The notes: generated from the letters alone by a model not told the origin. 64,000 nt of DNA from Planctomycetota bacterium (GCA_029259595.1 JAJDEW010000017.1:1073-65072), one strand, 5' to 3'. Shown: positions 12,844 through 55,018, numbered from the stretch's first letter. Numbers and translations: made by a program.

Positions 12844-13010
12844 CTAGTGGGGTGACGAACGAGCGCTTCGGATGCCGGGGCGTCCGCAGCCGCTGGAGTG
12901 GAGCATCTGAAAACGCAGGCGAATCCGTGGATTCTGCGAGGCTTCCAGGTGGCGCACTCCTGCGGGGGATGTCGTCATGGCGCCCAATGACCGGGTCAAG
13001 GGGCTCCTAG
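12844..13010. repeat. Copy A (most diverged) of a novel ~165-bp CTAG-flanked repeat element with partially complementary ends.
   Basis: Shares the motifs GCTTCGGATGC, GAAAACGCAGGCGAATCC and GCGAGGCT and a GGGCTCCTAG 3' end with the copies at 17743, 24427 and 24590. Its terminal CTAG (13007-13010) contains the EF-G stop codon. Confidence 0.8.
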
Positions 13011-15106
13011 GAATCCTCGCCGAGGACCTTCTCGGCGATGTTGCGCGGGACGGCGCGGTACTCCTGGAGCTCCATGGAGTACGAGCCACGCCCTTGAGTC
13101 GCACCCCGGAGGGCCGAGGAGTACGCGAACATCTCGGCGATCGGGACGAGACCGCGAACGATGCGCTGATCGCCCAAGGCCTCGACCTCGCTGACTTCGC
13201 CGCGGCGCGAGTTGAGATCGCCGACGACGCCACCCAGGTATTCCTCGGGCACGCGCACCTCGATCTTCATGATCGGTTCGAGCAGCGTCGAGTTGCCCTG
13301 GATGACTTCGCGGAAGGCCTGGACGCCGGCTGCATGGAAGGCGTGCTCGTTCGAGTCGACGTCGTGCGCCTTGCCGTCGAACAGGCTGGCTCTGACGTTC
13401 ACGAAGGGATAGCCGAGACGGCCCCCGCCCAAGACGCCTTCCTTGATGCCCGCGGAGACCGCAGGGATGTACTCGCGCGGGACGGAACCACCCTTGATCT
13501 CGGAGACGAACTCGAACTGTTCTTCGCCCGTGTCCACGATGTCGAAACGCACGCTGATGACGGCGTACTGACCGCGACCGCCGGACTGGCGCACGTAGCG
13601 GATCTCGAGCGACTTCGAATTCGAAAGCTCCTGCTTGTAGGCGACCTTCGGCCGCCCGGTGACGACTTCGCAGCCGTACTCGTTCTTGATCCGGTTGACG
13701 ACCACCTCGAGGTGGAGCTCGCCCATGCCCGAGATCACGAGGTCGCCCGTCTCCTCGTTCGTCACGGCGCGGAAGGTCGGATCCTCGCGCATCATGCGAC
13801 CGATGACCTCGGTCAACTTGTCGCGGTCCTGGTTCTTCGCCGGCTCGATCGACATGGCGATGACGGCCTCGGGGAAGGTGATTTTCGAGAGCGCGATCGG
13901 CGCGTTCTCGTCACACAGCGTGTCACCCGTGATCGTGTTCTTGAGCCCCATGACGGCGGCGATCTCTCCGGCCCCGACGGAATCGCAGGCCTCGCGCTTG
14001 TTCGCGTGCATGCGAACAATGCGGCCGATGCGCTCGTTCTTGCCGGTCCGCGGGTTCAGGACTCGGACGCCCTTCGAAAGGACCCCGGAGTAGACCCGCA
14101 CGAAGGTGAGGTCACCGGTGGACTCCGCAACGGTCTTGAAGGCCATCAGGCACATCGGCTCGTCGTTCGACGGCTTGCGCGTCTCGACGGTGTCCTCGCG
14201 CGGACGCAGGCCCTGGACGGGCGGGATGTCGAGCGGGCTCGGCAAGTAGTCGAGCACGGCGTCGAGCAGGAAGCGCACGCCCTTGTCCTTCAGGGCCGAG
14301 CCGCAGAGGACAGGCGTGATCTCCATCGAGAGCGTTCCGAGTCGGATCGCGCGCTTGAGCAGGTCCAGCGGAATCTTCTGGTCCTCGACGAAGAGATCCA
14401 GGAGCTCCTCGTCGAACTCGGCGGCGGTTTCCACCAACTCGTGCCGACGCAACTCGACCTCTTCGAGCATGTCCGCGGGAATGTCCTTCTCGGACGCCGC
14501 CTTGCCGTCCGAAGCCTCATCGAACTCGTAGAAGCGCTGGTTCACGAGGTCGATGAAGCCGCGGAAGTCCTTCTCCTCGCCGACGGGCAGCTGCAGCGTG
14601 ATCGGACGCGCACTCAAGCGATCGACGATCGACTGGATGGCCTTGAAGTAGTCCGCGCCCGCCCGGTCCATCTTGTTGATGAAGCAGATCCGCGGAACTC
14701 CATAGCGGTTCGCCTGGCGCCAGACCGTCTCGGACTGGGCCTCGACCCCGCTGACGGCGTCGAACACGGCGACCGCGCCATCGAGCACCCGCAACGAACG
14801 CTCGACCTCGGCGGTGAAGTCCACGTGGCCGGGCGTGTCGATGATGTTGATCGTGTGATCCTTCCACTCGACCGTCGTGGCCGCCGATTGGATCGTGATG
14901 CCGCGCTCACGCTCCTCCTCGAGGAAGTCCATCGTGGCACTGCCCTCGTGCACCTCACCGGTCCGGTGGATCTTGCTCGAGAGGAACAAGATCCGCTCCG
15001 TAACGGTGGTCTTGCCGGCATCGATGTGGGCCATGATGCCGATGTTGCGGTGCTTGACGAGGTTTTGCTGGCCCATCGCTTGCTGGGATTCGACTGCCGT
15101 GGACAT
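13007..15106 (-). CDS. fusA: Elongation factor G. It stands alone, outside any rpsL-rpsG-tuf context, so it is probably an EF-G2-type paralogue.
   Basis: MSTAVESQQ...[29 protein letters not shown], and full five-domain EF-G length (699 aa). Confidence 0.92.
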
Positions 15107-15255
15107 GATTCGAGCGCGAACGACGCGCGTTGTGGACTTCCACCGTGGGGAAGCGTTGCGAACCCGTGCGGGCCGCGGGGAACCGAAAGGGAGGGCGTCG
15201 AACCCTGCTCGATCGGAATTTGAAGCGAACTAGACTAGCGCGGCTTCGTTGCCTG

Positions 15256-16116
15256 TCAACGGCCGCTGGCGACTCGTTGTCCGCCGAGCGGGATCCCGAG
15301 CTCCACCTCTCGGCCAGCAGCCACGAAGTCCTGGAAGCGCAGGGGAATGCCCTCTCCGTGGGCATCTTGCAAATACAGCATCAGGCCGGACCACCCGGAC
15401 GAGCCCTCAGCGGAGGCCGGGAGCACGCCCAGGACTTCGGCGACCTCGACCCGGTCGCCGAGCGCGAGACCGGCGACCGGGTCGCAGCCCGCCAGCACGA
15501 GCAAGCGTCCGGGAGCGAGCTCCAGCACGATGCGCCGGGGTTGTCCGGGTGCCAGGTGCGCGTCGGTCGCTCTTGGTCCGTCCCCGAGCGCCACGATCCG
15601 GCCCGCGGCCGGGGCCAGGACCGTGGGCAGCGGGCGGCCGCCGGCGTGCTCCGGCTCCTCGACGAGCGGATCGAACAGGAAACCGAAGCAGCGATCCGGC
15701 ACCAGCACGAGCCCGTTGCGCCGCCGATCGGTCCCCCCGAAACGACACATCCAGGTGCCCTCGAAGGGCAGCTGGAAGCGGATCGTGCTCGGTCGTCCGG
15801 CATAGGACGAGGGATAGGACAGGGGAAACGACGCGAGCCAGAGGCCGGCGCCGGCGACCAGGAAGGCCGCGAGTCGTCCGGGCTGCAGCACGGGGCGGTG
15901 CAAGGCGGACCAGACCAACGCCAGGGTCAGCGCCAGGGCCGCGGCCAGCCCCGCGAGGACAGGGCCGTACAGGTAGGCCAGCACCGGACCGCGGCCGCCG
16001 GGACGCGAGCCCAGGTAGACGTAGAGCCCGAGCGTCGCGAGACCGAGAGCGTGCACGAACAGGGGCCAACGCTCGCGCCGCTCGGCGGGCGTCGAACCGG
16101 GCGCAGGCGCGGTCAC
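15256..16116 (-). CDS. Hypothetical integral membrane protein (about 3 TM helices plus a C-terminal soluble domain), translationally coupled to HMG-CoA reductase.
   Basis: A GTG start overlaps the hmgr TGA stop (GTGA). Hydrophobic N-terminus (LFVHALGLATLGLYVYLGS, LAGLAAALALTLALVWSAL, LAAFLVAGAGLWLASF). The ORF track's 623-aa version is a run-on through hmgr in another frame. Confidence 0.5.
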   Translation of the reverse strand: MTAPAPGSTPAERRERWPLFVHALGLATLGLYVYLGSRPGGRGPVLAYLYGPVLAGLAAALALTLALVWSALHRPVLQPGRLAAFLVAGAGLWLASFPLSYPSSYAGRPSTIRFQLPFEGTWMCRFGGTDRRRNGLVLVPDRCFGFLFDPLVEEPEHAGGRPLPTVLAPAAGRIVALGDGPRATDAHLAPGQPRRIVLELAPGRLLVLAGCDPVAGLALGDRVEVAEVLGVLPASAEGSSGWSGLMLYLQDAHGEGIPLRFQDFVAAGREVELGIPLGGQRVASGR

Positions 16117-17390
16117 GGCCGCGGCACCTGCGGCCGGTTGCGCCCCAGCCGTTCGTGGGCCTCGACGAAGTCGTGCGTGCAGAACGAGGCGAGCAGGGAC
16201 AGGTCGCCGGCGAGAACCGTGGCCGCGAGGATCTCGGCCAATTCGTCCGCTCCCCCCGCCTTGCGCACCCCGAGCAGATCGAGGCACTCGGCCGCCGTCC
16301 CTTGCCCGCTGCCCCCACCGACCGTGCCGACGAGCAGGGACGGCAGGTGCGCGCTGGCGTGCAGATCGCCATCGGGCAGACACTCGAAGTCGAGAAAGCC
16401 CGTGGCGCTCTCGGTGACATAGGCGACGTCCTGACCACAGGCCAGATAGACCGCCGCCAGCCCGTTGGCCGCCTGGACGAGCCCGTTCGTGGTTCCGAGC
16501 CGCGCGAACCCGACCGCATAGGAGCGCTGGATCCGGACGAGATCCTCGGGGGTGACGCGCAGGATCTCGCGCAGGACCGCGGCCGGAATCCGAACCTCGG
16601 CGACGGTATCCCGACCGCGACCACGCGCGAGCGCCACCGCGTTGGCCCGCTTCTCGACGTCTTCGCCATGGACGTAGTAGCGCTCGGCACCGGTCCGCTG
16701 GGCGAGCTCGTGCGCGATCGCGTCCGTCGCGCGCGCCGCCATGTTGATGCCGATCGCGTCCCCGGTCGCAAACGTGAGCTCGCAGACCACACGCCGACCG
16801 ACGAGGCGGGGTTCGAGCGCGAGCAGGCGACCGTGCTTCGTCAGCCCGGCGACGATCGTGGCGCAGGCCTCGAAGCTGGCCGGGATGGCGTCCCGCGCAG
16901 CGAGCGCGGACCGCGCGTCCGCAAAGAGCAGCATCGGGTGTTGCGTCAAGCCGTGTCCGACGACCCGGGCCCAGGCGCCACCCGCCGCCCGCAGGAGCTT
17001 CATCCCCCGGGCGTAGGCCGCGACCATGGCGCCCTCGGTCGTCGCGAAGGGCACGAAGACCGAGCGCTCGCCGCCCGACGTCTCGACCTCCAAGGGACCG
17101 GCGACCCCCACGGGGACCTGGGCCCACCCCACGAAGTTCTCGACCTTACCGTGGGCCTCGAGCGCGGGCACCGGCGCACCCGCGAGCCGAGGCAAGGGAC
17201 GACCGGCGGCCGTTTCGCAGGCGGCCAGGCGCGCGCGGACGAACTCGGGCTCGAAGTCCCGGGCACCGTCGGCGCGCGGCAAGGGAGGCAGGTCCGAGCG
17301 CGCGTTCTTCACGCCAGGAGCATACGCGGCGCACCCGGCGCGGCCGGAATACGAAAAGGGGGCCGGAGTGGACAAGGACTCCGGCCCCAA
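16113..17390 (-). CDS. hmgA: Hydroxymethylglutaryl-CoA reductase, class I catalytic domain (mevalonate pathway).
   Basis: Class I HMGR motifs ENFVGWAQVPVGVAGPL, VPFATTEGAMVA, DAIGINMA and GTVGGGS. Length 425 aa. Confidence 0.85.
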   Translation of the reverse strand: MGPESLSTPAPFSYSGRAGCAAYAPGVKNARSDLPPLPRADGARDFEPEFVRARLAACETAAGRPLPRLAGAPVPALEAHGKVENFVGWAQVPVGVAGPLEVETSGGERSVFVPFATTEGAMVAAYARGMKLLRAAGGAWARVVGHGLTQHPMLLFADARSALAARDAIPASFEACATIVAGLTKHGRLLALEPRLVGRRVVCELTFATGDAIGINMAARATDAIAHELAQRTGAERYYVHGEDVEKRANAVALARGRGRDTVAEVRIPAAVLREILRVTPEDLVRIQRSYAVGFARLGTTNGLVQAANGLAAVYLACGQDVAYVTESATGFLDFECLPDGDLHASAHLPSLLVGTVGGGSGQGTAAECLDLLGVRKAGGADELAEILAATVLAGDLSLLASFCTHDFVEAHERLGRNRPQVPRP

Positions 17391-17742
17391 CAGTTCGCTT
17401 CAGTGCCATCCCTAGAAAGGCCGTCTCGAAGCACAGGCGCCCATCGTTCTCGTCTCGTGGTTTCCAAGGAGGAGGGGAGGATTGGAAACCTCGATGGGGC
17501 GCCGGAAGACTGTCACGAACTGCTTCGAAACTCATGGACCAGCTCATGAGCGCCTTCAAGCGACCATTCTGAGGCGATTCCGCGGAAAGCCATGCTGTCG
17601 ACAGGAAGCGCTCTGGAGCGCGTCCGGCTCCGACCGATGCGGATCCCAGGATGAGGCCCGGGTGAGGTCGGCCGGCGAGTGATCCTTCCGAAAGGGCGCG
17701 GGAGCCCGTCCGACCCGCGGGTTGGCGCGCAGCCATCCCCAA

Positions 17743-17905
17743 GAGCCCGTTGAAGAAGTGCTTCGGATGCCTGGGCGGCAGCATCCGCTTCGATGAGGTG
17801 CCTGGAAACGCAGGCGAATCCATGGATGCGGCGAGGCTTGCAGGTGTCTCACCGAAGTGGAGGACGTCGCCCTGGCGCCGGATGACTTTTTCAACGGGCT
17901 CCTAG
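17743..17905. repeat. Copy B of the novel ~165-bp repeat element, in the divergent promoter region between hmgr and the deaminase gene.
   Basis: 5' end GAGCCCGTTGAAGAAGTGCTTCGG pairs with 3' end CTTTTTCAACGGGCTCCTAG. It carries the shared core motifs. Internal hairpin CGGATGC...GCATCCG. Confidence 0.8.
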
Positions 17906-18085
17906 CCGCGACCCTTCGGGGCAGCGCCGGCCACACGCCGCCTCGCGACACGCTCCGAACACCGGGGTCCTCGACCCCCCGGCCAAAGTCGCCTGCGGGG
18001 CCGAGGTCCATGAAGATTCACCTGACCGCGAGTTGGATCGAACGGTTCCACGCTCTTGGGACGGATGCGCGCTAGCCTCTGCGCC

Positions 18086-18577
18086 ATGGGCTCGCACGAA
18101 CCTCTTCCCCTCGATTCCGACGAGCGCTCGTTTCTGACGGAGGCGATCGCACTCGCGTGCGAGGCCGTCCGTGCCGGAGGCGGCCCCTTCGGGGCACTCG
18201 TCGTCCGAGCCGGTCGCGTGCTTGGACGCGGGTGCAACGCGGTCGTGCCCACGCTCGATCCGAGCGCGCACGCCGAGATCGTGGCGATCCGCGCCGCCTG
18301 CCAGGAGACCAGTAGCCACGCCCTGCCGGGTGCCACGATCTTCAGCTCTTGCGAGCCGTGTCCGATGTGCCTGGCCGCCATCCACTGGGCGCGGATCGAG
18401 CGCGTGGTGTTCGCCGCCTCGCGGCACGACGCCGCCGCGGCCGGCTTCGACGATGCCGCGCTGTATGCCGCCTTCGCCGCTGGAAGTTCGCCGGTGACGC
18501 TCGCCCGCGGCCTCGAGGGCGAGGCCGACGAACCGTTCCGGGTCTGGGCCGCGACCGCGTCCCGGCGGCCCTACTGA
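18086..18577 (+). CDS. CMP/dCMP-deaminase-fold zinc deaminase (guanine deaminase / tRNA adenosine deaminase-like).
   Basis: Zinc-binding motifs HAEIVAIR and CEPCPMC. The ORF track starts at TTG 18056; ATG 18086 (MGSHEPL) is more plausible. Confidence 0.7.
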   Translation: MGSHEPLPLDSDERSFLTEAIALACEAVRAGGGPFGALVVRAGRVLGRGCNAVVPTLDPSAHAEIVAIRAACQETSSHALPGATIFSSCEPCPMCLAAIHWARIERVVFAASRHDAAAAGFDDAALYAAFAAGSSPVTLARGLEGEADEPFRVWAATASRRPY

Positions 18578-18608
18578 AGCACCGCTCCGCCCCGCGGTCG
18601 GCTCCCGT

Positions 18609-19265
18609 TCAGGGACGTTCGGGAGACTTGTCGCGCGGACGGTCGACGCCGAACGACTTCTTGACCGTACGGCTGCCGTCCTTCGACCACAGGGTCCAGG
18701 CCCCGACGCGCGCCCCCTCGGCATAAACCCCTTCGGCTCGGCGCTTGCCGTCGGGGTACCAGATCGTCCAGAAGCCGGCTTCGCGCGCGCGCGTGTAGCT
18801 GCCCTCTTTCTCCTTGTGCCCGTTCGGAAACCAGAGCGTCCACAGGCCTTCCTTCACGCCGGCGATGCCGCTGCCTTCGCCGGCGAGCACACCGTTGTCG
18901 TGCCAGAAGCGCATGAATCCCGGGCGCCCCTTCGCCGCCATCTCGATCTCCGAGTGCAGCTGGCCGTTCGGGTACCAGCTCTTCCACAGACCGCTGGGCA
19001 CGTCGTGCTCGTGGGTGCGCTCGGCCCGCAGGCTTCCGTCCGGATAGCGCAACACCTCCTTGCCGTGCAGCTCGGCCCGCCCGTCGGGGTGGACGAGGAC
19101 CTCGTAGCGGCGCTTCTCGACCTCGCGCCCGGCGTACCACGTGCGACGCGTCTCCGGCTTCGGGCTCGGGGCCACGACCGCTTCGTCACGCGGCTCGTTC
19201 GAGCCGCAGGCGGCACAGACGACAAGGAGAAGAACCGGGGCGAGGGCGGAGAAGGTCAGGCGCAT
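18609..19265 (-). CDS. Secreted/lipoprotein with MORN-variant (YwqK-like) repeats.
   Basis: Signal peptide MRLTFSALAPVLLLVVCAACGS. Repeated G-x-W-x-x-WYPNGQ-type motifs (GLWKSWYPNGQLHSE, GLWTLWFPNGHKEKEG, GFWTIWYPDGKRRAEG, GAWTLWSKDGS). Confidence 0.6.
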   Translation of the reverse strand: MRLTFSALAPVLLLVVCAACGSNEPRDEAVVAPSPKPETRRTWYAGREVEKRRYEVLVHPDGRAELHGKEVLRYPDGSLRAERTHEHDVPSGLWKSWYPNGQLHSEIEMAAKGRPGFMRFWHDNGVLAGEGSGIAGVKEGLWTLWFPNGHKEKEGSYTRAREAGFWTIWYPDGKRRAEGVYAEGARVGAWTLWSKDGSRTVKKSFGVDRPRDKSPERP

Positions 19266-19331
19266 CGACGTCTACGAGAGCGTGTCTCGGGGCGAGTCTA
19301 ACCCGTCGACCGACCTCTGGTTGCGCCGATT

Positions 19332-21770
19332 TCAGCGCAGGAGCAGGGCCCGGAACAGGAGCTGGAAGGCGGCCTGGGACCAGCCGCGGTACTGCGGACG
19401 GAAGCCGAAGAGGTGCACCGCTCCCGCGCCGTGCGAGGCCCGCAGCCAGGCCGACTTCCCGGCGATGACTTCGGGTTGGCGGATCCAACCCGAGGCGAGC
19501 ACACGCGTGGGAGCGTAGTCCAAGAGCGAAACGAACGTGCGCCCGTCTTCCTCGAGCGTCTGCTTGTCCGGTAGCTCCCAAGCGGCCGAACGCGAGAAGA
19601 AGACGGCCAGCGAGTCGGGCAGGCCGGCGGTGAGTTCGTGTGCCGCCGGAACCGTTCGGACCACGCTGCCGGGACAGGAGAAGTCGCCTGCCTCCGGACC
19701 GCGGGTCGTGTCCTCGAGCGGCAGGTCGAAGAGCTCGATCGCCCAGCCCGCCGAACTGCCCGTCGCGACCAGCGTGCCCCCGCCGCGGACGAACTCCTCG
19801 ATCGCAGCCGCGCCTTCCGCATCGAGACCCCCCTCGAAGTCGGGCGGCACCGTGCCCGCCTCGCGCCCGCGCTCGAGCTGGCGTCCGGAGATGCTCGGCA
19901 CGAAGAGCACATCGAGGAAGTCCGCGAGGCGCCCGGCCCGGATCATCTCGTTGCGGACGCTCACGTAGGGCACGCCGAAGGAATCCAGCACGTAGCGGGC
20001 CCAGCCCTCGTCCATGCTCCCGAACCAGGGGGCATAAAGACCGATGCGCGGCAGCTGGGCCAGGTCGCCCTCGGCACTCTCCTCGAACAGACCGGCGTGC
20101 TCGCCTTCGGCGTGGAAGGAGAGCGCCTGGCCCGCGCCGAGACGCTCCCAGACCGCGCGCCAACCGTCGCCGTCGCGCGAGGCGTGGAAACCCGCGGAAG
20201 GACCGTCGGGAAAGCCCGCGAGCGCGTCCACGGCCGAGGTGACGGGACGCAGCGCGACTTCGGGCTCGGTCACGAGCTCGACGCGGTGAACGCCCATCAA
20301 CAGGGGCAGGGTCCAGCCCGCCACGTCGTAGGGCGGATCGCCTTCGGGGTAGCGTTGGACCTCGAAGAGGTCCTTGACGTGCTGACCGTAGGGCTGGGCT
20401 CGAGCGATGACGAGCGAGCCCGCCGGCCAGCGACGGCCGTCCGCTTCGATCTCGGTCGTGGCAGCCTGGAGCTCGACCCCGCCGAGCAGCAACGTATCCG
20501 CCAGCCGACGGACGGCCGCGCGGTCGGGATTGGTGCTCGGGATGATCCAAGCCCGCGGCGTGTCCGAGACGCCCTTCTCGATCGCGCGTTCAGCGGCGCC
20601 GAGCGCGTTCTCCAACCAGAGCCGCGGCTCGCGCACGACACTTCCGAGGAGCGAGCGGGCGAAGGCGTGCTCGTAGTCGATGATGTCGCGCAGACGCCAC
20701 CAACCGCCCGGCCACGGAGCGGGGAAGCGGTTCGACGGGGCGTAGCCCCCCAGGCCGCGCGGTGCGCCCAGCCGATCGAAGGGCAGAAAGACCGGCGTCG
20801 CGATGCGGACCGAGGCCGCTTCCGTGAGCAGTCCGATGATGTTGTGGCGAACGGGCACGTTGCGGTTGCCGCCGTTCCACCACATGTCGTAGGTGACCCC
20901 GGTCGACACCCCCGTCAGGCCCTCGCGCGTCATGTCGAACAGGGCGCGCGTCCCGAGCTGGGCGATCCCACCGATCACGCCAGGGTCCAGGTTCGGGTTC
21001 AACGGGTCGCGGAAGGGCGGAACGAAGAAGCGCTCGTTGTTGGAGCCTTGCTGGTGGACGTCCCAGTAGATCTGGGGGAACCACTCGCCGTAGAGGAGCC
21101 GCGTCACGATGCGGGTTTCGTTCTGGGACAGCATGAACCAGTCCCGGTTGTTGTCGTGCCCGGCGTAGTACTGGTAGAGCTTCAGAAGGCCCGAAGCCTC
21201 GTAGGGCGTCCCCACGGTCTCGCGGTACCACGACACGACGTGGTCGAGGCCATCGGGGTTCAGGCACGGCGCGATCAGCACCACGGCGCGCTCGCGGGCG
21301 CTCTTGTACGGCTCCTCGTTCGACGTCGCCAATCGGTGCGCGAGCTCGAGCCCGAATTGCGGCGCGGCGGTCTCCGTGGAGTGCATCGCGATCGATACGA
21401 AGACGATCGGAAGCGCCTCGGCCAAGAGCGCTTCACGGCTCGGGCCGTCGAGGCCGCGCGGATCGGCCAGGCGGCGAGCGGCGGATCGGATCTCGTCGAG
21501 CCGTGCGAGGTTGGACTCGCTCGACACCGTGGCGAGCAGGAAGTCGCGGCCTTCGGTCGTCTGCCCCACGGTCTCGACCAGGACGCGTGGACTCTCCGCG
21601 GCCAAGGCCTGGAAGTAGCCCGAGACCTCGTCCCAATCCGCCAGCTCGAAGTCGCGCCCGAGCGGTCGGCCCAGGTGAGCCTCGGGAGTGGTGACCGACT
21701 GAGCCGTCGCGGCGGGGAGCGCGCAGCCGAAACCGAGGAGGACGAAGCTCGAAAGGAGGATGGATCGCAT
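19332..21770 (-). CDS. Secreted M14-family zinc carboxypeptidase with a C-terminal DJ-1/class I glutamine-amidotransferase-like domain.
   Basis: Signal peptide. M14-like N-terminal half (HSTE..., HDNNRDW). C-terminal domain FVRGGGTLVATGSSAGWAIELFDLP. Length 812 aa. Confidence 0.65.
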   Translation of the reverse strand: MRSILLSSFVLLGFGCALPAATAQSVTTPEAHLGRPLGRDFELADWDEVSGYFQALAAESPRVLVETVGQTTEGRDFLLATVSSESNLARLDEIRSAARRLADPRGLDGPSREALLAEALPIVFVSIAMHSTETAAPQFGLELAHRLATSNEEPYKSARERAVVLIAPCLNPDGLDHVVSWYRETVGTPYEASGLLKLYQYYAGHDNNRDWFMLSQNETRIVTRLLYGEWFPQIYWDVHQQGSNNERFFVPPFRDPLNPNLDPGVIGGIAQLGTRALFDMTREGLTGVSTGVTYDMWWNGGNRNVPVRHNIIGLLTEAASVRIATPVFLPFDRLGAPRGLGGYAPSNRFPAPWPGGWWRLRDIIDYEHAFARSLLGSVVREPRLWLENALGAAERAIEKGVSDTPRAWIIPSTNPDRAAVRRLADTLLLGGVELQAATTEIEADGRRWPAGSLVIARAQPYGQHVKDLFEVQRYPEGDPPYDVAGWTLPLLMGVHRVELVTEPEVALRPVTSAVDALAGFPDGPSAGFHASRDGDGWRAVWERLGAGQALSFHAEGEHAGLFEESAEGDLAQLPRIGLYAPWFGSMDEGWARYVLDSFGVPYVSVRNEMIRAGRLADFLDVLFVPSISGRQLERGREAGTVPPDFEGGLDAEGAAAIEEFVRGGGTLVATGSSAGWAIELFDLPLEDTTRGPEAGDFSCPGSVVRTVPAAHELTAGLPDSLAVFFSRSAAWELPDKQTLEEDGRTFVSLLDYAPTRVLASGWIRQPEVIAGKSAWLRASHGAGAVHLFGFRPQYRGWSQAAFQLLFRALLLR

Positions 21771-22008
21771 CCGCGGATGCTAGCGGGAGGCGGTCCGAAC
21801 CGTCCACTCGCGTTGATCGAAGGGCAGCGGAGCCGAGGTCGCACATACGGATCACCCACCAGGAAAACTGGACCCGCATACGCTTCCTCGACTCCGCAGC
21901 ACTCCGAGGAGAGTGCGGCGTTCGAGAACTCCGCTTTCGTCTCGTGCCCCACCGATGCGGCTCGTTCCCGAGCGGGTTGCGGAAAGCTCGAAAATCTCGA
22001 CGCTCGCT

Positions 22009-23553
22009 TCAGCGTGCCGCGAAGCGTTCGCGTAGGAGACGCTTGGCGATCTTGCCGGAGCCCGTCTTCGGCAGTTCTTCGAGCCAGTGGATGCGACGGG
22101 GCAGCTTGAAGGCGGCGAGCCGCGCACGGCAGAAGGCCAGGAGCCCTTCCTCCGCGAGCGCGGCGCCGGGACGGCGGACGACGGCGGCGGCGACGATTTC
22201 ACCCCACTCGTCGTCGGGGAGCCCGAAAACCGCTGCCTCCTGGAGGTCGGGGTGCGCGTCGAGCACGTGCTCGACCTCCGTCGAGTAGACGTTTTCCCCG
22301 CCGGTCACGATCATGTCCTTCTTGCGGTCGACGATGTTCACGTACCCCTCGGCGTCGATCACCGCGAGGTCGCCCGTGTAGAGCCAACCGCCGCGGATCG
22401 CCTCGGCCGTCGCCTCCGGAGCTCGCCAGTAGCCGGGCGTCACGGTCCGTCCCCGGACGCGGATCTCCCCCACGGTGGCGTCGTCGGCCGGAACGCGCCG
22501 GTCCCGCTCGTCGACGATTTCGAGCTCGACGCCGGTGAAGGCGCGCCCGGTGCGCGCCTGGATCCGGAGCCGCTCGTCGGCGGGCAAGTCCGCCAAATGC
22601 TCGTGCAGCAGACCGAGCGTCAGGTAGGGACTCGTCTCCGTCATTCCGTACGTTTGGACGTACTCGCAGCCGAAGGTCGTGAGGATCTCGCGAACGAGCG
22701 TCGGCGAGATCGGAGCGCCGCCGGAGAGCAGGAGTCGCAGGCTACGATGATCCGCCCGCTGCGTCCGCTCGTCGCGGACCAGGCGGTTCAACATCGTCGG
22801 GACGAGGTTCGTCACGGTCATCCGCCCGACCTCGATACAGCGCAGCACCGCCTCGACGTCGAAGCGCGGAACGAAGAGGTGGGTACCGCCCACCGCGGTG
22901 ATCGCGAGCGTCGCCCAGGCGTCGGCCAGGTGGAACATCGGCGCGATGTGCCCCCAGCGATCCCGCTCGGAGAGCGAGAGCTCGCGGCAGGCGGTCAGCG
23001 CGTGCACGAGGACGTTCTCGTGGGTCAGCATGACCCCCTTGGGCCGCCCGCTCGTCCCGCTCGTGTAGTACAGCTGGGCAACGTCGCTCGCTGGCCCGGG
23101 GACCGGCTCGAGCGCGGGCCCGCTCGGATCCAGGTCGAGGGCGTGGATCCGGAGCGCGGGGACGCGCGTGCGAACCTCGTCGGCGAGTCCCGCGCAGGCT
23201 TCGTCATGGACGAGGGCGGCGGGCTCGGCGGAGGCAGCGATCGCGGCGAGCTCGTCCGGCGCGAGCCGGGTGTTCCACGGCACGAGGATCAAGCCCGCCT
23301 CGGAGGCCGCGAAGGTCGTGACCAGAGCGAGGGGTCCGTTGTCCGCGAGCAAGGCCAGTCGCTCACCGGGCCTGCAGCCCGCACGTCGCAGCGAACTGGA
23401 CGCGCTGCGCACGCGCTGCGCGAGCTCCCTCCAGGTCCACGACGTGTCCCCGAACGAGCACGCCTGGGCCCCCGGCGACCGCTTCCAGGTCCGGGACAGA
23501 AGGTCGTGAAGGCGACCGGGCGGCGAGCTTCCTGGGAACCGAACCCCTTGCAT
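22009..23553 (-). CDS. AMP-dependent synthetase/ligase (acyl-CoA synthetase family).
   Basis: AMP-binding motif LYYTSGTSGRPKGVMLTHEN, then TYGMTETS, then GWLYTGDLAVIDAEGYVNIVDRKKDMIVTGGENVYSTEVE. Confidence 0.8.
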   Translation of the reverse strand: MQGVRFPGSSPPGRLHDLLSRTWKRSPGAQACSFGDTSWTWRELAQRVRSASSSLRRAGCRPGERLALLADNGPLALVTTFAASEAGLILVPWNTRLAPDELAAIAASAEPAALVHDEACAGLADEVRTRVPALRIHALDLDPSGPALEPVPGPASDVAQLYYTSGTSGRPKGVMLTHENVLVHALTACRELSLSERDRWGHIAPMFHLADAWATLAITAVGGTHLFVPRFDVEAVLRCIEVGRMTVTNLVPTMLNRLVRDERTQRADHRSLRLLLSGGAPISPTLVREILTTFGCEYVQTYGMTETSPYLTLGLLHEHLADLPADERLRIQARTGRAFTGVELEIVDERDRRVPADDATVGEIRVRGRTVTPGYWRAPEATAEAIRGGWLYTGDLAVIDAEGYVNIVDRKKDMIVTGGENVYSTEVEHVLDAHPDLQEAAVFGLPDDEWGEIVAAAVVRRPGAALAEEGLLAFCRARLAAFKLPRRIHWLEELPKTGSGKIAKRLLRERFAAR

Positions 23554-23637
23554 GGCAAGGAGTTCTACGACCTTGAGGGAAAAAGTCCTACAGGGAGCTG
23601 GGCCCGCTGACGAAGGGGCCAGCGGAGGGTCGGGAGC

Positions 23638-24417
23638 TTGCCGACCCGATCGCTAGTCCGCGAAGCCCCCTCTTCGTTGCTCGATCTCATGAACGACAGC
23701 TCGCCGCCGGCGTCCCGGCTCGTGTCGGAATCCGTTCTTGCTCCGAACGCCTTGCCCTCCCGTACCGCGCGCTCGCAGCACGCGTCGACCTTGTCCTCCC
23801 GACCCCGCCGGACCTGCCCGCTGATTCGAGTCGCAGAAGAGCACCGCCTCGGCCTGGTCATCGACAGCGTCTTGATCGTGAGCGCCGACGCCGCCTTCGC
23901 GGACCGTTTCCACGACGAGCTCTCCCCCACCTTCGCATCGACCAGGGCCGGCTCCCTGCGAGAAGCGCTCGAACGGCTGGACCTGACGCGACCGCAGGCC
24001 ATCGTGCTCGACACCCCGCTCGCCGATGCGACGGGTCTGAAGGCCTACTTCTTCATCAGCCAGCACACGCAGGAGGCATGCGTCCTGGCGCTGACACGCG
24101 AACGCGACCATCTCCAGGCGCGGTGCCTCGTCACCGCGGGAGCCGCCGCCGTCCGCTCGCGCGAGAGCGTCTTCAGCACCGACGTCCGGATCGTCGTCCG
24201 CGACGCGATCGCGACCGCTGCGCGACGCCGATCACTCGCGGGCAACGCCACGATCGCGGCCCAGGCCGAGCGAGTCTCCATGTGTGCGGTGTGCCGCAAG
24301 ACGCGCGACCACGAGACGTACTGGAACCGCCTCGAGGCGCTCGCAACGGACGACGGACGCCAGCCCGTTTCTGCCGCGATCTGTCCGGCCTGCGCGCGTC
24401 AGCTCTACGGCCACTAG
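23638..24417 (+). CDS. Hypothetical protein with a degenerate CheY-like receiver domain and a C-terminal CxxC...CxxC zinc ribbon. The start is uncertain and could be ATG ~23689.
   Basis: Receiver-like segments VLIVSAD and AIVLDTPLADATGL. C-terminal CAVCRK...CPACARQLYGH. Its TAG stop (24415-17) lies in a CTAG-rich junction immediately before repeat copy C. Confidence 0.45.
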   Translation: MPTRSLVREAPSSLLDLMNDSSPPASRLVSESVLAPNALPSRTARSQHASTLSSRPRRTCPLIRVAEEHRLGLVIDSVLIVSADAAFADRFHDELSPTFASTRAGSLREALERLDLTRPQAIVLDTPLADATGLKAYFFISQHTQEACVLALTRERDHLQARCLVTAGAAAVRSRESVFSTDVRIVVRDAIATAARRRSLAGNATIAAQAERVSMCAVCRKTRDHETYWNRLEALATDDGRQPVSAAICPACARQLYGH

Positions 24418-24426
24418 CTACTAGCT

Positions 24427-24593
24427 CTAGCAGTCCGATGGCAGAGTGCTTCGGATGCGATGTTCGTGACCGGGAGGCCCGGCGGGTGCGCGAGAACGCA
24501 GGCGAATCGGTAGATTCGGCGAGGCTCTCGTGTGCCGGCCGGACTTTCCGGACGCGTGCAGCGCGTCGGAGGACTTCTTCCAAGGGCTGCTAG
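24427..24593. repeat. Copy C of the novel ~165-bp repeat element. It is the first of a head-to-tail tandem pair.
   Basis: About 90% identical to copy D across the core. It carries GTGCTTCGGATGC, the GACCGGGAGGCCCGGC hairpin, GAACGCAGGCGAATCGGTAGATTCGGCGAGGCT, and ends GGGCTGCTAG. Confidence 0.85.
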
Positions 24594-24757
24594 CAGCCTG
24601 ATGGAAAAGTGCTTCGGATGCGATGCATGTGACCGGGAGGCCCGGCGGGTGCGCGAGAACGCAGGCGAATCGGTAGATTCGGCGAGGCTCTCGTGTGCCG
24701 GCCGGACTTTCCGGACGCGTGCAGCGCGCCGGATGACTTTTTCATCAGGCTGCTAGG
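24590..24757. repeat. Copy D of the novel repeat element. It shares the CTAG (24590-93) with the end of copy C, and its right terminal CTAG contains the stop codon of the methyltransferase gene.
   Basis: 5' end CTAGCAGCCTGATGGAAAAG is almost perfectly complementary to 3' end CTTTTTCATCAGGCTGCTAG. GCTGCTAGCAGC at the C/D junction is a perfect 12-bp palindrome. Confidence 0.85.
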
Positions 24758-25340
24758 ACTTGCGGCGGTCGAAGACCGCCCAGCGCTCTTGCCACTCGCG
24801 ATCGGTAACCGGGTAGTCGACCGGGCGATCCGCGCAGATGCGGAAGGTGTTCCCGAGCGCACGCTGCTGATCGTCGGCGGTGATGCCCCAGGGAGGTCCG
24901 CCCAGCTCGAGCGGACGGTCGACCGGGAAGACGAGGCAGAAGAGCCGCCCGTTCGAGGCCAGGTTGCGGTCGATCATCTTGCCCCAGTCGGGCCGCTGCG
25001 CGGGATCGATCGCACAGAAGAAGGTGTGATCGAAGATCGCCTGGAAGGACTCCTTGCCCTGGTGCTTCAGCGCGTCGGTCGCGAGGAATTCGCCACCCAG
25101 CTCCTTCAGCGGGGTCAGGATCTCGTCGGAGAGGTCGACCTGATCGATGGCCGTGACGCTCCAGCCGAAGCTGGCCAGGGCCAAGGCGTCGTAGCCACGT
25201 CCGCAGCCGGGGACATAGGCCCGCCCCGGACGCCCGAAATCGCCAGCACGCAAGCGTGCGACCAACTCAGGATGAGCGCGACCCAGGTCCCAGGGCGTGT
25301 CACCACTCTGGTAGCGCGATTCCCAGTCCATGGGGAGCAT
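24753..25340 (-). CDS. SAM-dependent methyltransferase, thiopurine S-methyltransferase-like.
   Basis: ORF track gives 24753..25493. The likely start is ATG 25340 (MLPMDWESRYQSGDTPWDLG). SAM-binding motif VPGCGRGYDALALASFGWSVTAIDQ. Confidence 0.65.
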   Translation of the reverse strand: MLPMDWESRYQSGDTPWDLGRAHPELVARLRAGDFGRPGRAYVPGCGRGYDALALASFGWSVTAIDQVDLSDEILTPLKELGGEFLATDALKHQGKESFQAIFDHTFFCAIDPAQRPDWGKMIDRNLASNGRLFCLVFPVDRPLELGGPPWGITADDQQRALGNTFRICADRPVDYPVTDREWQERWAVFDRRKS

Positions 25341-25519
25341 CGAATGAGGGAAGACGCTCGCCGCGAGAGACAAGGGAGCGCGGAGGTCATGGCAACCATT
25401 CGACTCGCCGATTGCAAGCGCACCGCGTATTCTTCCCGACCTCCCGCGAGGTTCCGGGGGCCTCGCGACATGGGGTCCAGGGACTTCAGACACCGCTCCC
25501 GCCGACCGCCACGCCCGCG

Positions 25520-46093: not shown

Positions 46094-49000
46094 TCAGTTC
46101 CGCACTGCGGCGAGATCCAGGTTGAACAGCCAGGCCAAGATGGCCTCGATCTGATCCTGGCTCGTTCCGGGCAGGAACTCCTGATACACGGCTTCGTTGG
46201 GTGGGAAGTTGGCGGGCATCGAAGTGCCCGGGTACTTCTTGCCCGGATCGTTGAGCCACTCGCGGGTCCAGCCCACGCGCAGTCGTTCCCGGGAAATGAA
46301 GAGATCGGGCGCCCAAGCGATGGGCCCTTCCGCCGTCGGTGCACCTCCCTGCAGGAAGTGGCACTGGAAGCAGTTGGGGCCTTGATCGGCGAGCCGATGG
46401 ACGTTGTCGAAGAATTCCGGGTTGCGGGCCAAAAGCGGGTCGAGGTAGCTCGGTGAGCGCATCTCGATCGCTTCGAACGTCGGGGTGATCGGACCTTCGA
46501 TGTCGAAGTCCTTCGCATCGCCATAGGACACGAGCTTGGAAAGTCCAGCCTCGGTCTCGACGGTTCCGCCGGCCGCGATTCCCTCGACTTGCCCGGCTGA
46601 CACTCCCGACATCCCCATGGCGGACATCTCGTTCGCGATCTGATCGGGTGTCTTGCCCAGGGCCATGAACATCTCTTTCGCGTAGCGCGCCGGCCAGTCC
46701 TTCTCCGAGCGGTACATGAAGTAGTCGACGACCGCTTCGGCTTCCCCCGGCTCCCACGAGAAGGTCGGCATCCGCACTCGCATCTGCTGGCGCAGCGGCT
46801 CGGGATCCTTCAGGAAGGCGTAGAACCACTCACGCTGGATCTTGGAACCCTCGTCCCACAGGACCGGGGGCGCGAAGGTCCAGCGGATCTTCGGGTACGG
46901 CTCGACGCTGTAGTCGCGCCATTCCCCGTCGACGTCCTGTACGCGTCCCTCACCCTCGGGATCGCCCGTGAGCGAGAACTCCTCGTCGGTCTCGGGGTCG
47001 TAGCCCCAGGGACGGAGGTAGTAGTCCGCCACGATGTCCACGAACGCGCCGCCCCAGGGTGCTTTGGTCTCGATCGAGTCGATGTCCTCGACGACGATCG
47101 TCGACCCGGACTCCTTGCCGAGTTCAGGGTGAGGCCCGACGAGCTGGAAGGCGACGTCCTCGAGCTCGTACTCGGGATCCTCGTCCACCTCACGGATGTA
47201 GTCCTCGTAGCCGGAGATGTAGTCCTGGAAGCCGTTGAACGGCGGGGGCAGAGTCTCGTCTTCGACGTTGATGAACTGACCGTGCGCCGTCAGGCGTCGT
47301 CCGTCCTCCCCCGTGAATTCGATCGAGCCCGGCTCGAACATGTGACAGGCCTGGCAGTTCTTCTGACGGATCGTCTGCAGGCCATGGTTCATCGACACCT
47401 GCGGGGCCGAAGGAACCATCTTGGCGTGCTGGACCTCGTCCTTGACGAGCCCGACGACAAACGTCGCGATCGCCTTGACTTCGTCCTCTTCGAAGTCGAA
47501 CCACGGCATGCGCAACTTCTCCGTCGGGTTCTTCACCTTCCGACGGTCGAAGGAACGGGGCGCGTGCAGCTTCTGCTCGAGCCACGGCTCCCGGTAGTAC
47601 TTCATCTCGAGCTTCTTGTGCTCGTTCAGCTCCTCGGGCCAGTCCGCTTCTTCCGCGATGATCTCGTGCATGAAGCCCCAGTCGAGCTTGTCGACGGTCT
47701 TCGAGGCCCAGGTCGTGAGCTCGGCCCCGATGGGCATCGCGTTCTCGAGACCGGGGATCTCGTGGCACGAGTGGCAGCCCTGGTTGAGGACGTACTTCTC
47801 GCCGACGGCGACCAGCAAGGTCTTGTCGTCCGACCACTCCTCCTGGAAGCGGCGGGTCAGCTCGGAGCGGGCCGTACGGTTGAAGAACCAGCGCGCTTGC
47901 TCACGCAGCGCGGCTTGATCGTACGTCTCCGTCGTCGCCTCCCAACCGTCGGGCACGTCGGTGAAGATCGACTCGGGATCCTCGAAGACGTAGGCGACGA
48001 CATCGGCGGCGTCCTGGTCGGAGAGGCGCAGGTTCGGCATGCGCGTCTCTGGCCAGTAGGCGGTGGGATCCTTGACCCAGCCGTACAGCCACTCGGGTGT
48101 GACCTTCGTCGCGATGCCGCGCAGGTTCGGACCGTGCTCGTTCGTTTCGCGCGCCATCTTCGCGGGATCCACCACGTCGGCCTGCTCGGCTTCGGTGTGG
48201 GGCGCCATGTTGTGGCACGCCAGACACCCCGAGAGTCGGAAGACCTCACGCCCCCGCACGGGATCGCCCTCGACGGGAAGGTCGGTCTCCACGGGGGGCT
48301 GGGTCACGTCCCACAGGTAGGCCGTGACCGCGGCGACGGCGGTCTCGTTCCAGGCCTGGCCGAGGATCGGGGGACCACTGCCCCACTCGGACACGGCGAT
48401 GACCTCGTCGGGAGCGTAGTTCTCCAGGTGGAAGATCTGGGGCATCTTCGTCGTCGGGCGGAAGTCGCGCGGCTTCGCGATCCACGACGAGACGAAGTCG
48501 CGGTTCGTCTTGCTCTGAATCCCCCGCAGCGAGGGTCCCGGACGACGCTTGGTCGGGAACCACTCCACCTTGTGACAGGAGTAGCAGCCGTAGCTCTCGA
48601 AGAGCCGGTAGCCCTCCGTGACCTTCGGCGCGTCGTCCGCGATGAGCTCCATCGAGTCGGTGTGGCACTGGACGCAGCTGGCCTCGATGTACTCGGAGTT
48701 GAGCATCGGGTAGTCCCAGTAGTGCTTCTTGTGCCAGTGATACTCCTCGGCCCACTCGTCGCCCTCGGCCTCGTCGGTCGCGTTGTGATCCGCGCGCACG
48801 AAGTCGAGCGCCTCTCCTGATCCGCGGTGACAGATCGTGCAGCCCATCTCCGCCAGGGAGTGGGGCGACTTGGCGGACAGGAAGAGGTCCAGGCGCGGGT
48901 GCGACGTGAAGGGCTGCGCCTCGTCCTCGAAGCCAGCGCGCTCGATCGGCACGTGGCAGGTCGTGCACATGTCGATCCGCTTCTTCTTGGTGAAGTTCAG

Positions 49001-49729
49001 CTCGAAGGTCAAGTTCTCGAGAACGACCTTGTTGACCACCAGGCTGGGGCCGATGAAGTCGAGGCCCGGGAAGTCACGGATGATGTTCGCGAGCTGGGTC
49101 GGGAAGTCGTCCGGCGCCAAGGTGGCCAGCTTCTTGCGAATGAGGTCGACTTCCTTGGTCGCGGCGCGCACGGCGGCCTCGGCGTCCGTGAGTTGCGCGG
49201 TGAATTCGTCGATCTTCGCGTTCTGAGCGTCCACCGCGGCGTCGGCGATCTGCTTCTCTTTGCCGCGTGCGAAGAGCTCGTCTTCGAAGGCCTTCAAGCG
49301 ATCCTCGGCATAGCCCGGATCCCCGTGCTTGATCCGATGCTCCTCGATGGCCCAACGCTCCCAGTTGAAGTTCTGCTTGGCCTTCTTCTCGGCTTCGGTC
49401 GCGACGAACTGGGTTCCGAGCAGTTCCTTGAGCTTGGTCTCGGCCGCGAGGAGCGAGCTCTTGTTCGCGTCGAGCGCCTTCTTGGCCGCGACCTGGGCGG
49501 CCTGGAGGCGCTTCTCATCGGAGAGAGCCTTTTGAGCCTCGGGCTCGAGCAAGGTCTCGCGCGCCCGCTCGACCTCGATGGCCTGGAACTCGCGCTGGTA
49601 GGCCTTCCAAGGACGGCTCCAGTCGTCGATCACCATCCAGACCGAAGCGCCGAGCAAGATGATGCTCGACACCGCGAACCAGCGGTTCAAGAGGGGAAGG
49701 TGGTAGTGGGTGTCGCCGCGATCAGCCAT
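46094..49729 (-). CDS. Membrane-anchored octaheme c-type cytochrome (1211 aa).
   Basis: N-terminal TM helix (WFAVSSIILLGASVWMVI). Eight CxxCH motifs: CTTCH, CTICH, CVQCH, CYSCH, CLACH, CHSCH, CQACH, CFQCH. Confidence 0.85.
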   Translation of the reverse strand: MADRGDTHYHLPLLNRWFAVSSIILLGASVWMVIDDWSRPWKAYQREFQAIEVERARETLLEPEAQKALSDEKRLQAAQVAAKKALDANKSSLLAAETKLKELLGTQFVATEAEKKAKQNFNWERWAIEEHRIKHGDPGYAEDRLKAFEDELFARGKEKQIADAAVDAQNAKIDEFTAQLTDAEAAVRAATKEVDLIRKKLATLAPDDFPTQLANIIRDFPGLDFIGPSLVVNKVVLENLTFELNFTKKKRIDMCTTCHVPIERAGFEDEAQPFTSHPRLDLFLSAKSPHSLAEMGCTICHRGSGEALDFVRADHNATDEAEGDEWAEEYHWHKKHYWDYPMLNSEYIEASCVQCHTDSMELIADDAPKVTEGYRLFESYGCYSCHKVEWFPTKRRPGPSLRGIQSKTNRDFVSSWIAKPRDFRPTTKMPQIFHLENYAPDEVIAVSEWGSGPPILGQAWNETAVAAVTAYLWDVTQPPVETDLPVEGDPVRGREVFRLSGCLACHNMAPHTEAEQADVVDPAKMARETNEHGPNLRGIATKVTPEWLYGWVKDPTAYWPETRMPNLRLSDQDAADVVAYVFEDPESIFTDVPDGWEATTETYDQAALREQARWFFNRTARSELTRRFQEEWSDDKTLLVAVGEKYVLNQGCHSCHEIPGLENAMPIGAELTTWASKTVDKLDWGFMHEIIAEEADWPEELNEHKKLEMKYYREPWLEQKLHAPRSFDRRKVKNPTEKLRMPWFDFEEDEVKAIATFVVGLVKDEVQHAKMVPSAPQVSMNHGLQTIRQKNCQACHMFEPGSIEFTGEDGRRLTAHGQFINVEDETLPPPFNGFQDYISGYEDYIREVDEDPEYELEDVAFQLVGPHPELGKESGSTIVVEDIDSIETKAPWGGAFVDIVADYYLRPWGYDPETDEEFSLTGDPEGEGRVQDVDGEWRDYSVEPYPKIRWTFAPPVLWDEGSKIQREWFYAFLKDPEPLRQQMRVRMPTFSWEPGEAEAVVDYFMYRSEKDWPARYAKEMFMALGKTPDQIANEMSAMGMSGVSAGQVEGIAAGGTVETEAGLSKLVSYGDAKDFDIEGPITPTFEAIEMRSPSYLDPLLARNPEFFDNVHRLADQGPNCFQCHFLQGGAPTAEGPIAWAPDLFISRERLRVGWTREWLNDPGKKYPGTSMPANFPPNEAVYQEFLPGTSQDQIEAILAWLFNLDLAAVRN

Positions 49730-54930: not shown

Positions 54931-55018
54931 GCCCGGGTGGCGGAACTTGGTAGACGCGCAAGACTAAGGATCTTGTGGGGTAATTCCCGTGCTGGTTCGA
55001 TTCCAGTCTCGGGCACCA
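54931..55018 (+). tRNA. Type II (long variable arm) tRNA, most likely tRNA-Leu. The anticodon loop reads CUAAGGA, giving nominal anticodon AAG, which is unusual for bacteria.
   Basis: Hand-folded: acceptor stem GCCCGGG/CUCGGGC plus A-CCA. D-arm UGGCGGAACUUGGUAGACGCG, collinear with E. coli tRNA-Leu. Anticodon stem CAAGA/UCUUG. Long variable arm. T-arm GGUUCGAUUCC. Confidence 0.8.

Follow-up and report, generated by a model that had tools for sequence, protein, structure and literature searches.

Several families of short, hairpin-forming repeats have been described in bacteria, and each shares some features with the element treated here, a 159-bp sequence found four times in 64,000 nucleotides of DNA from a Planctomycetota bacterium (GCA_029259595.1, JAJDEW010000017.1:1073-65072). 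This whole stretch is referred to as the window. The element is probably a non-autonomous MITE (a miniature transposon with inverted repeats) of the IS5 type with a body that is kept as a hairpin on one strand. The ERIC (IRU) and YPAL (RU-2, 168 bp) repeats of enterobacteria, compared by architecture only, are similar to it in size (127-168 bp) and in being imperfect palindromes over their full length. They differ in being AT-richer, with no sequence relation seen, and in a target duplication of TA, in contrast to CTAG for the element here. We know of no report of a strand-asymmetric mismatch spectrum in ERIC or YPAL comparable to that of the Planctomycetota element. Both occupy transcribed intergenic regions and gene 3' ends, and both have orientation-dependent effects on mRNA (PMC10969869, PMC2759123).

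In the Correia elements (NEMIS) of Neisseria, also compared by architecture only, just the ends pair; in the element here the whole body pairs, with a tip stem that varies yet stays paired. The Correia centre carries a binding site for the protein IHF and promoters. These MITEs are ~100-155 bp long with terminal inverted repeats and a functional centre, and RNase III cuts their folded transcripts (PMC10969869). The bcr1 element of the Bacillus cereus group differs from the present one in phylum, composition, target (TTTAT) and fold. The two are alike in other ways, bcr1 being a transcribed MITE of ~155 bp with a fixed target duplication and with compensatory changes that preserve its fold. It is listed as a MITE in PMC3733652. 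REPINs, the REP doublets associated with RAYT genes, have GTAG/CGTC tags, lack a target duplication and are linked to a Y1 transposase gene, none of which is seen here. Bertels and Rainey are said to have described REPINs in 2011 as hairpins that spread in genomes. The likeness lies in their size (hairpins of ~100 nt), compensatory change and spread within a genome (PMC3733652).

The insertion sequences (ISs) of the IS5 family that belong to the NF033581 type (ISRssp10, relatives named 'ISXoo14 transposase', and members in Bosea and Rhizobium) resemble the element in sequence. Common to both are the terminal CAG(G/C)C(T/C)G(T/G)TGAA(A/G)AA and a 4-bp duplication of CTAG type, and the right end of the MITE keeps the TGA and following bases of the IS. 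In contrast to the MITE, which is 159 bp long, non-coding and palindromic throughout, these ISs are 1.3-1.5 kb long, encode DUF772 and DDE_Tnp_1 domains, and have an interior that is not palindromic; the Bosea and Rhizobium members add a second open reading frame (ORF) of 111 aa. The ISs examined come from Proteobacteria and the MITE from Planctomycetota.

Occurrence of the Element

A first-pass annotation of this DNA had proposed four copies of a repeat, all on one strand, at positions that are confirmed with small changes at two ends (copy B starts at 17740 and copy D ends at 24756). When the whole 64 kb was scanned with a covariance model, filters off, these four copies were found and no fifth. 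All lie on the + strand, each with a body of ~159 bp between CTAG repeats. Copy D (24590-24756, +; CTAG at 24590-24593 and 24753-24756) is the best preserved, with a model score of 165.8 bits. It is joined through one CTAG (24590-24593) to copy C (24427-24593, +), whose left CTAG is at 24427-24430, and the two are 91% identical. Copy B (17740-17905, +; 152.3 bits) has its right CTAG at 17902-17905 and is 86% identical to a copy from another metagenome-assembled genome (MAG). Copy A (12844-13010, +; 102.8 bits), with CTAG at 12844-12847 and 13007-13010, is a decayed element 75% identical to B; its neighbours are fusA and the gene that comes next on the - strand. The CTAG flanks ascribed to every copy are thus present on both sides of A, C and D and to the right of B; the left duplication of B has degenerated to CAAG with the loss of 1 nt.

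The conserved blocks noted earlier are real. In the four-way alignment, AACGCAGGCGAATC and GCGAGGCT show no variation across A-D; GTGCTTCGGATGC is kept in B, C and D, and copy A reads GCGCTTCGGATGC instead. The 14-mer core occurs four times in the window at up to 2 mismatches (0.88 expected), always within one of the copies. A weak model hit at 47439-47539 (-; 17 bits, E 0.05) was rejected as a copy: it is a hairpin (z -2.5) inside the coding region of a multihaem cytochrome.

Further copies come from a family scan over one genome per species with the query AACGCAGGCGAATC N8-12 GCGAGGC. It matched at least 59 loci (these and some other loci are cited below by number, as L001), and at least 56 of these matches are copies of the element, in MAGs of more than 20 species that bear the label Planctomycetota or unclassified. 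Three of the 59 loci listed are chance matches, in Streptomyces, in Paraburkholderia and in a Pseudomonadota MAG.

Hairpin Structure and Covariation

In copies B, C and D the whole element folds as one imperfect hairpin of ~75 bp. Measured against dinucleotide shuffles, the folds of B (-98.3 kcal/mol, z -8.55), C (-108 kcal/mol, z -8.99) and D (-122.4 kcal/mol, z -13.64) are far more stable than expected; that of copy A (-71 kcal/mol, z -0.5) is no better than the shuffles, and this copy has decayed. The complementarity first seen at the ends therefore extends over the entire body. The inner stem-loops also proposed exist as local alternatives within the arms and are not the main fold.

Sequence change in the arms is largely compensated. 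RNAalifold gives a consensus of 63 pairs, and in 52 both sides have changed. In the covariance-model alignment, standard pairs fill 92.7% of the cells, as against 70.8% for shuffled sequences and ~40% when the partners are slid, and cells with a double change number 576 versus 168 (shuffled) and 96-144 (slid); an alignment of this kind is biased towards structure and the copies share ancestry, yet the margin is large. Helix 1 is paired in 93.7% of cells. The stems of different subfamilies have almost no sequence in common and nonetheless align with no insertion or deletion. Every copy measures 164-167 nt between its first and last flanking TA, so that length is fixed. Certain mismatch positions also recur between subfamilies, namely a 2x2 loop ~20 nt in and single oppositions near 31, 36 and 45. 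Such paired changes on both arms are incompatible with a conserved reading frame, and the 159-bp body, under the ~500 bp of a MITE, is non-coding. The first-pass annotation had taken the compensatory variation as a replacement for a transposase-type end. The variation is real and runs the full length of the element, and the ends prove to be transposase-type terminal sequence as well.

Near the tip of the hairpin lies the apical core, AACGCAGGCGAATC-NNNN-GATTCNGCGAGGC, at 12912-12942 in A, 17807-17837 in B, 24495-24525 in C and 24658-24688 in D (all +). Its parts are a 6-bp tip stem, a G.G opposition and a G-C pair, followed by a 3x3 loop (GCA/GAG), a C-G pair and an A.C opposition; the internal loop is both asymmetric and conserved. 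Three neighbouring copies that fall outside the search pattern (L055:5756-5921, L056:6732-6902, L049:4372-4540) keep the core with 1-3 changes. Two other hairpin families have a looser form, CGCAG(G/A)CGA-stem-loop-stem-TCG.CGAGG, in which the tip stem is different but still paired. One of these is an element of ~200 bp (L046:4923-5122, L038:2781-2983, L052:6371-6453) with GCCCGG.. ends beside TA/CTAG. It is inserted directly adjoining copies of the main family and is similar in its strand asymmetry.

Strand Asymmetry and Orientation

The two strands of the element are not equivalent as hairpins. For all 49 full copies (49/49), the more stable hairpin is that of the strand on which the core reads AACGCAGGCGAATC; its mean advantage over the complement is 26.5 kcal/mol, and it has ~9 G.U pairs per copy compared with ~2 on the complement. 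Among 15 subfamily representatives the oppositions on the core strand are 131 G.U, 57 G.G, 57 A.G, 43 A.C, 10 C.U, 6 U.U and 1 C.C; 30 of the 43 A.C are the two conserved ones of the core, which leaves ~13 outside it. Since the core strand is rich in oppositions that contain G, the least stable mismatches fall on the complement. Every copy has a G/C skew of +0.175, versus -0.012 for the window. Related element families show a similar asymmetry. This implies that pairing is selected on one strand only, in a single-stranded form that could be DNA or RNA. Of all mismatches in DNA, G.T, G.G and G.A have the highest stability, and they are acceptable in RNA too; the spectrum therefore fails to separate the two.

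Orientation relative to genes is also biased. If all copies are set with the folding strand as '+', the coding strand on their right side is '-' 29 times and '+' 8 times; on their left side the counts are 13 for '+' and 18 for '-'. Flanking pairs that share a direction are (-,-) 12 times and (+,+) twice. Among the complete copies, 13 have a stop codon exactly within the right duplication and 4 have one within the left duplication. The folding strand is usually antisense to the gene with its TAG stop in the duplicated CTAG, by ~3.5:1. The excess of '-' coding holds for 8 kb to the right (62-73%) and fades to ~50% to the left. From these counts, the element tends to be found where a run of genes ends downstream, its folding strand being antisense to those genes. 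The window agrees, with (-,-) for A, (-,-) for B and (+,-) for the C-D pair. The same-strand arrangement remarked on at the outset is real; four copies alone are not significant, though they are consistent with the wider bias elsewhere. No promoter-like or terminator-like site accompanies the copies, and GC3 skew, used as a proxy for the direction of replication, shows no difference between the two gene orientations.

Terminal Sequences and Relation to IS5

The terminal inverted repeats of the element are CAGCCCGTTGAAGAAG... and ...CTTCTTCAACGGGCTG, with variants (also GAGGCCGTGGTGAAAC). CTAG is present on both sides in 25 of 46 complete copies and the remainder are 1-2 nt different. The flanks of L001 (CTGG/CTGG) and L021 (CTAT/CTAT) point to a 4-bp duplication. 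In a blastn search of plasmids with a consensus of the element, a 27-nt match was found exactly at the end of a 1.53-kb IS on a plasmid of Rhizobium sp. T1473. That IS begins with CTAG|CAGGCTGTTGAAAAAGG and finishes with ATGACTTCTTCAACGGCCTG|CTAG. Its transposase, which is frameshifted, has the DUF772 and DDE_Tnp_1 domains and matches NCBIfam NF033581, 'IS5 family transposase', at 264.8 bits (cutoff 140). An intact relative of 1520 bp occurs in Bosea and in metagenomes with the ends CAGGCTGTTGAAAAACC and TCTGACTTCTTCAACAGCCTG. At six distinct sites it is flanked by CTAG/CTAG (three), CTAA/CTAA (two) and GTAG/GTAG (one); a seventh is mixed, ATAG/CTAA. Members at 49-57% protein identity (ISRssp10 and ISs of Methylomonas and Ralstonia) have CAGGCTG.TGAAA ends and TTAA or CTAG duplications. 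The end match to the Rhizobium and Bosea ISs covers ~16 nt on the left and 25-27 of 27-29 nt on the right, where the arm of the MITE retains the TGA that closes the second ORF of the IS. These observations support the view that the element is a MITE with the ends and duplication of an IS5-family clade of the NF033581 type. A transposase of IS5/IS427 type with matching ends had been suggested as something to look for, and the matching ISs are those of Proteobacteria. A protein search for a partner gave only Alphaproteobacteria among the top 120 matches. In a plasmid search, Planctomycetota were absent from the 40 matches listed and from the ten most frequent genera.

In the matching ISs the second ORF is conserved, encodes 111 aa (L063:1792-2127; frameshifted at L061:1924-2541) and has no Pfam match. 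It overlaps the transposase stop and finishes ~20 nt before the right end of the IS.

Other assignments were rejected. An IS630/Tc1-mariner origin with TA duplication had been read from variable outer flank bases, and it is contradicted by the 4-bp duplications of the ISs, by L001 and L021, and by the IS5-type ends. An integron attC site (5'-RYYYAAC...GTTRRRY-3') does not fit either, as the element has GTT on the 5' side and AAC on the 3' side on both strands; the spacing of the copies, 5-7 kb apart among housekeeping genes, also opposes it.

Insertion Sites and Mobility

Two comparisons of syntenic sites show the element present in one genome and absent in another. L060, whose elongation factor G (EF-G) is 76% identical to that of the window, has fusA, a 55-nt spacer and then the same downstream gene (61% identical protein) without an element, and so provides the empty site for copy A. 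The reverse is seen between a gene for a cytochrome-b-like membrane protein (49739-50821, -) and one for a 1211-aa multihaem cytochrome c (46094-49729, -). Here the window has a 9-nt spacer and the MAG OFTM79 (L002) is filled, its copy being 12 nt upstream of the start codon in the orthologue. The sequence CCCGAATGGTTCTTCAACG (49750-49775, -) of the window is 19/21 identical to the end of the MITE; it encodes the conserved C-terminus PEWFFN of the cytochrome-b-like protein, and the likeness is probably coincidence. The search for copies and empty sites in relatives, proposed earlier, thus yielded at least 56 loci and two cases of presence and absence in synteny. With the IS5-like ends, the 4-bp duplications and the dispersed non-coding copies, these bear out the suggestion of a MITE with a CTAG target duplication.

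CTAG is depleted three-fold in the window (25 found, 72.7 expected), and 6 of the 25 are flanks of the element. Insertion sites are often stop codons because CTAG contains TAG. For example, the TAG stop of fusA (13007-15106, -; EF-G, with Pfam GTP_EFTU, EFG_III, EFG_IV and EFG_C) is the CTA of the right-hand CTAG of copy A, and the TAG stop of a TPMT-like methyltransferase gene (24753-25493, -) lies within the right-hand CTAG of copy D. The duplication leaves both stops intact. Copy C begins 11 nt past the TAG stop of a response-regulator-like gene (23638-24417). Tandem or nested copies with one CTAG in common are found elsewhere as in C-D (L049, L055, L056). Directly left of copy C, CTAGCTACTAGCTCTAG (24414-24430) has three CTAGs in 17 nt, which is unlikely by chance given the depletion. 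A further cluster, CTAGACTAG, lies upstream of fusA at 15230-15238. Both clusters may be footprints of excised elements.

Distribution of the Family

As far as Rfam and the literature searched show, the family is new. The first-pass annotation did not recognise the element, and no description was found in Rfam 15 or in that literature. When the window was scanned with Rfam 15, only a tRNA reached the gathering score and the element was without a match; at an E-value threshold there were only hairpin-shaped matches to microRNA precursors, far below the gathering score. A tRNA-Leu with anticodon AAG and a long variable arm is located at 54931-55018 (+). The EF-G of the window shares no more than 78% identity with any other EF-G, and all named proteins among its best matches are from Planctomycetota. 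The complete Planctomycetota chromosomes OZ245006.1, OZ245838.1 and JADJWQ01 also contain the family. No copy was detected in the viral contigs searched. No neighbour protein recurs in 60 loci, an all-against-all comparison of 482 ORFs giving only sulfatases, glycosyltransferases and similar proteins.

Many copies sit at the very ends of MAG contigs (L002, L007, L013, L020, L024, L031, L035, L038, L040, L041, L043), and it is evident that the family often breaks the assembly of such genomes. In the MAG ERR2762127_binner23_Refined_22 (L048, L050, L006) one subfamily (GAGGCGTGGCCGGACAG...) forms head-to-tail arrays. The array junction is CCAG rather than CTAG, which suggests amplification of a tandem unit and not repeated insertion. 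A 36-bp mini element, CTAA|CAGCCCGTTGAAGAACGGCTAGTCTTCAACGGGCTG|CTTG, was encountered in a metagenome scan for the MITE end together with a DHPLR motif (L073:2734-2769 and L074:911-946). It is two terminal repeats back to back with an internal CTAG, and is probably an internal deletion of a full copy.

Explanations for the Hairpin

The likely interpretation of these features is that of a non-autonomous IS5-type MITE in which the body is maintained as a one-strand hairpin. In such a scheme an IS5-family DDE transposase acting in trans would recognise the ~20-bp ends (CAGCCCGTTGAAGAAG... and ...CTTCTTCAACGGGCTG) and insert the 159-bp body into CTAG-type sites with duplication of four bases; the identity of the transposase is inferred. 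CTAG is rare in this genome of 67% G+C and often holds a TAG stop, and elements would accumulate directly behind genes with the stop preserved. As each insertion adds two CTAGs, tandem and nested copies such as C-D would follow. The source copies that proliferate would have to fold as a single strand of one polarity, most likely as single-stranded or extruded DNA during mobilisation. Because copy A has decayed, the fold would be needed in proliferating lineages and not at each locus, where individual insertions would be free to decay. The bias in orientation could arise if insertions survive best where transcription of the preceding gene does not expose the strongly folding strand. At the DNA level, the hairpin or a cruciform might bring the ends of a 159-bp element together or serve a strand-specific processing step. 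We lean to such a DNA-level role because a role in mRNA predicts the opposite orientation. A more specific version, in which propagation requires folding of a single strand with one polarity, either as an IS5-type DNA hairpin or cruciform or as a mobile RNA module that spreads by means of IS5 ends, and in which the conserved internal loop near the tip is a putative protein-binding site, is offered tentatively and has less than an even chance of being right.

Several points weigh against this interpretation. The core was the search key, so that its invariance among the 59 loci is partly by construction, and the kinship of the copies means that copy counts overstate the independent events. The match to the IS extends over only ~16 nt on the left and ~27 nt on the right. 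Local alignment without the first 25 nt gives a similarity of MITE and IS inside the ends that is no better than shuffles; a homology of the MITE core to the region just inside the IS ends, where CGCAGACGA occurs near the right end, was dismissed on this ground. A full-length partner IS is absent among the pairs of terminal repeats in the loci, where only the 164-167 bp spacing and one 200-bp family occur. A tblastn search for it in 444 kb of Planctomycetota DNA found no match, and the one metagenome scan just mentioned found no partner either, only two chance matches. The mostly antisense position of the folding strand argues against a simple role in the mRNA of neighbouring genes, yet it is no proof of one in DNA. 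IS5-family DDE transposases are not known to use single-stranded or hairpin substrates, and a role for the fold would be without precedent there.

The hairpin could instead be selected for its role in a transcript, with the element spreading as a MITE that carries a structured RNA module, which might be processed by RNase III or RNase E, might stabilise a 3' end or form a roadblock, or might be a precursor of an antisense or small RNA. G.U and purine-purine oppositions on one strand and heavy covariation are the usual marks of a functional RNA helix, and a conserved 3x3 loop beneath a tip stem that varies but stays paired fits the same picture, as does an orientation bias tied to the transcription unit on one side and not to both flanks. 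MITEs such as Correia and ERIC do act via RNA hairpins cleaved by RNase III or RNase E (PMC10969869). However, with the folding strand antisense in ~3.5 of 4.5 cases, read-through would mostly yield the weaker complement. The mismatch spectrum is not specific to RNA, since G.T, G.G and G.A are also the most stable in DNA, and the loss of the fold in copy A indicates that it was not maintained at that locus. The lack of a promoter-like or terminator-like site with the copies and of an Rfam match above the gathering score adds to these objections, and a primary role in RNA is considered unlikely.

It is less probable still that the element is an ordinary MITE whose palindrome is a by-product of its origin from two copies of one IS end, or of correction of one arm by the other, and whose asymmetry and bias come from mutation and composition. 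Correction of quasi-palindromes is an established mutational process. The two arms are each similar to the IS right end, down to the TGA where the second ORF stops, and the capacity to form hairpins is common among MITEs (PMC10969869). Arm correction would erase mismatches, yet similar mismatch positions and the asymmetric core recur in subfamilies with almost unrelated stems. Given the gene orientation, cytosine deamination on an exposed strand would be expected to put G.T on the opposite strand. The skew exceeds that of the surroundings more than ten-fold, and length varies by no more than 2 nt across all subfamilies. With the whole-body hairpin kept on one strand, ordinary cut-and-paste transposition does not explain the element. 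Movement as single-stranded DNA by a Y1 (HUH) transposase such as RAYT, in the manner of REPINs or IS200/IS605, would account for selection of the hairpin on one strand and for orientation bias, both typical of such elements (PMC6006769, PMC3733652). The ends match DDE-type IS5 elements and not REPs, however, and the flanks are 4-bp duplications, a product foreign to Y1 elements; GTAG and CGTC tags are lacking and the 60 loci have no recurrent neighbour gene, which makes this route very improbable.

Significance

The element separates two features that are usually confounded in MITEs, ends of DDE type and a body with the signature of a functional single-strand helix. Copies sit at the stop codons of core genes (fusA) and inside the operon of a respiratory complex. 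A model of the family would be useful for annotation and for studies of 3' ends in a phylum about whose gene regulation little has been learned. Should movement depend on the fold, this would point to a single-strand or cruciform step, so far unrecognised, in transposition of the IS5 type, or to a means by which very short elements draw their ends together. If it acts as RNA, the family would be a mobile regulatory hairpin that has spread over a phylum.

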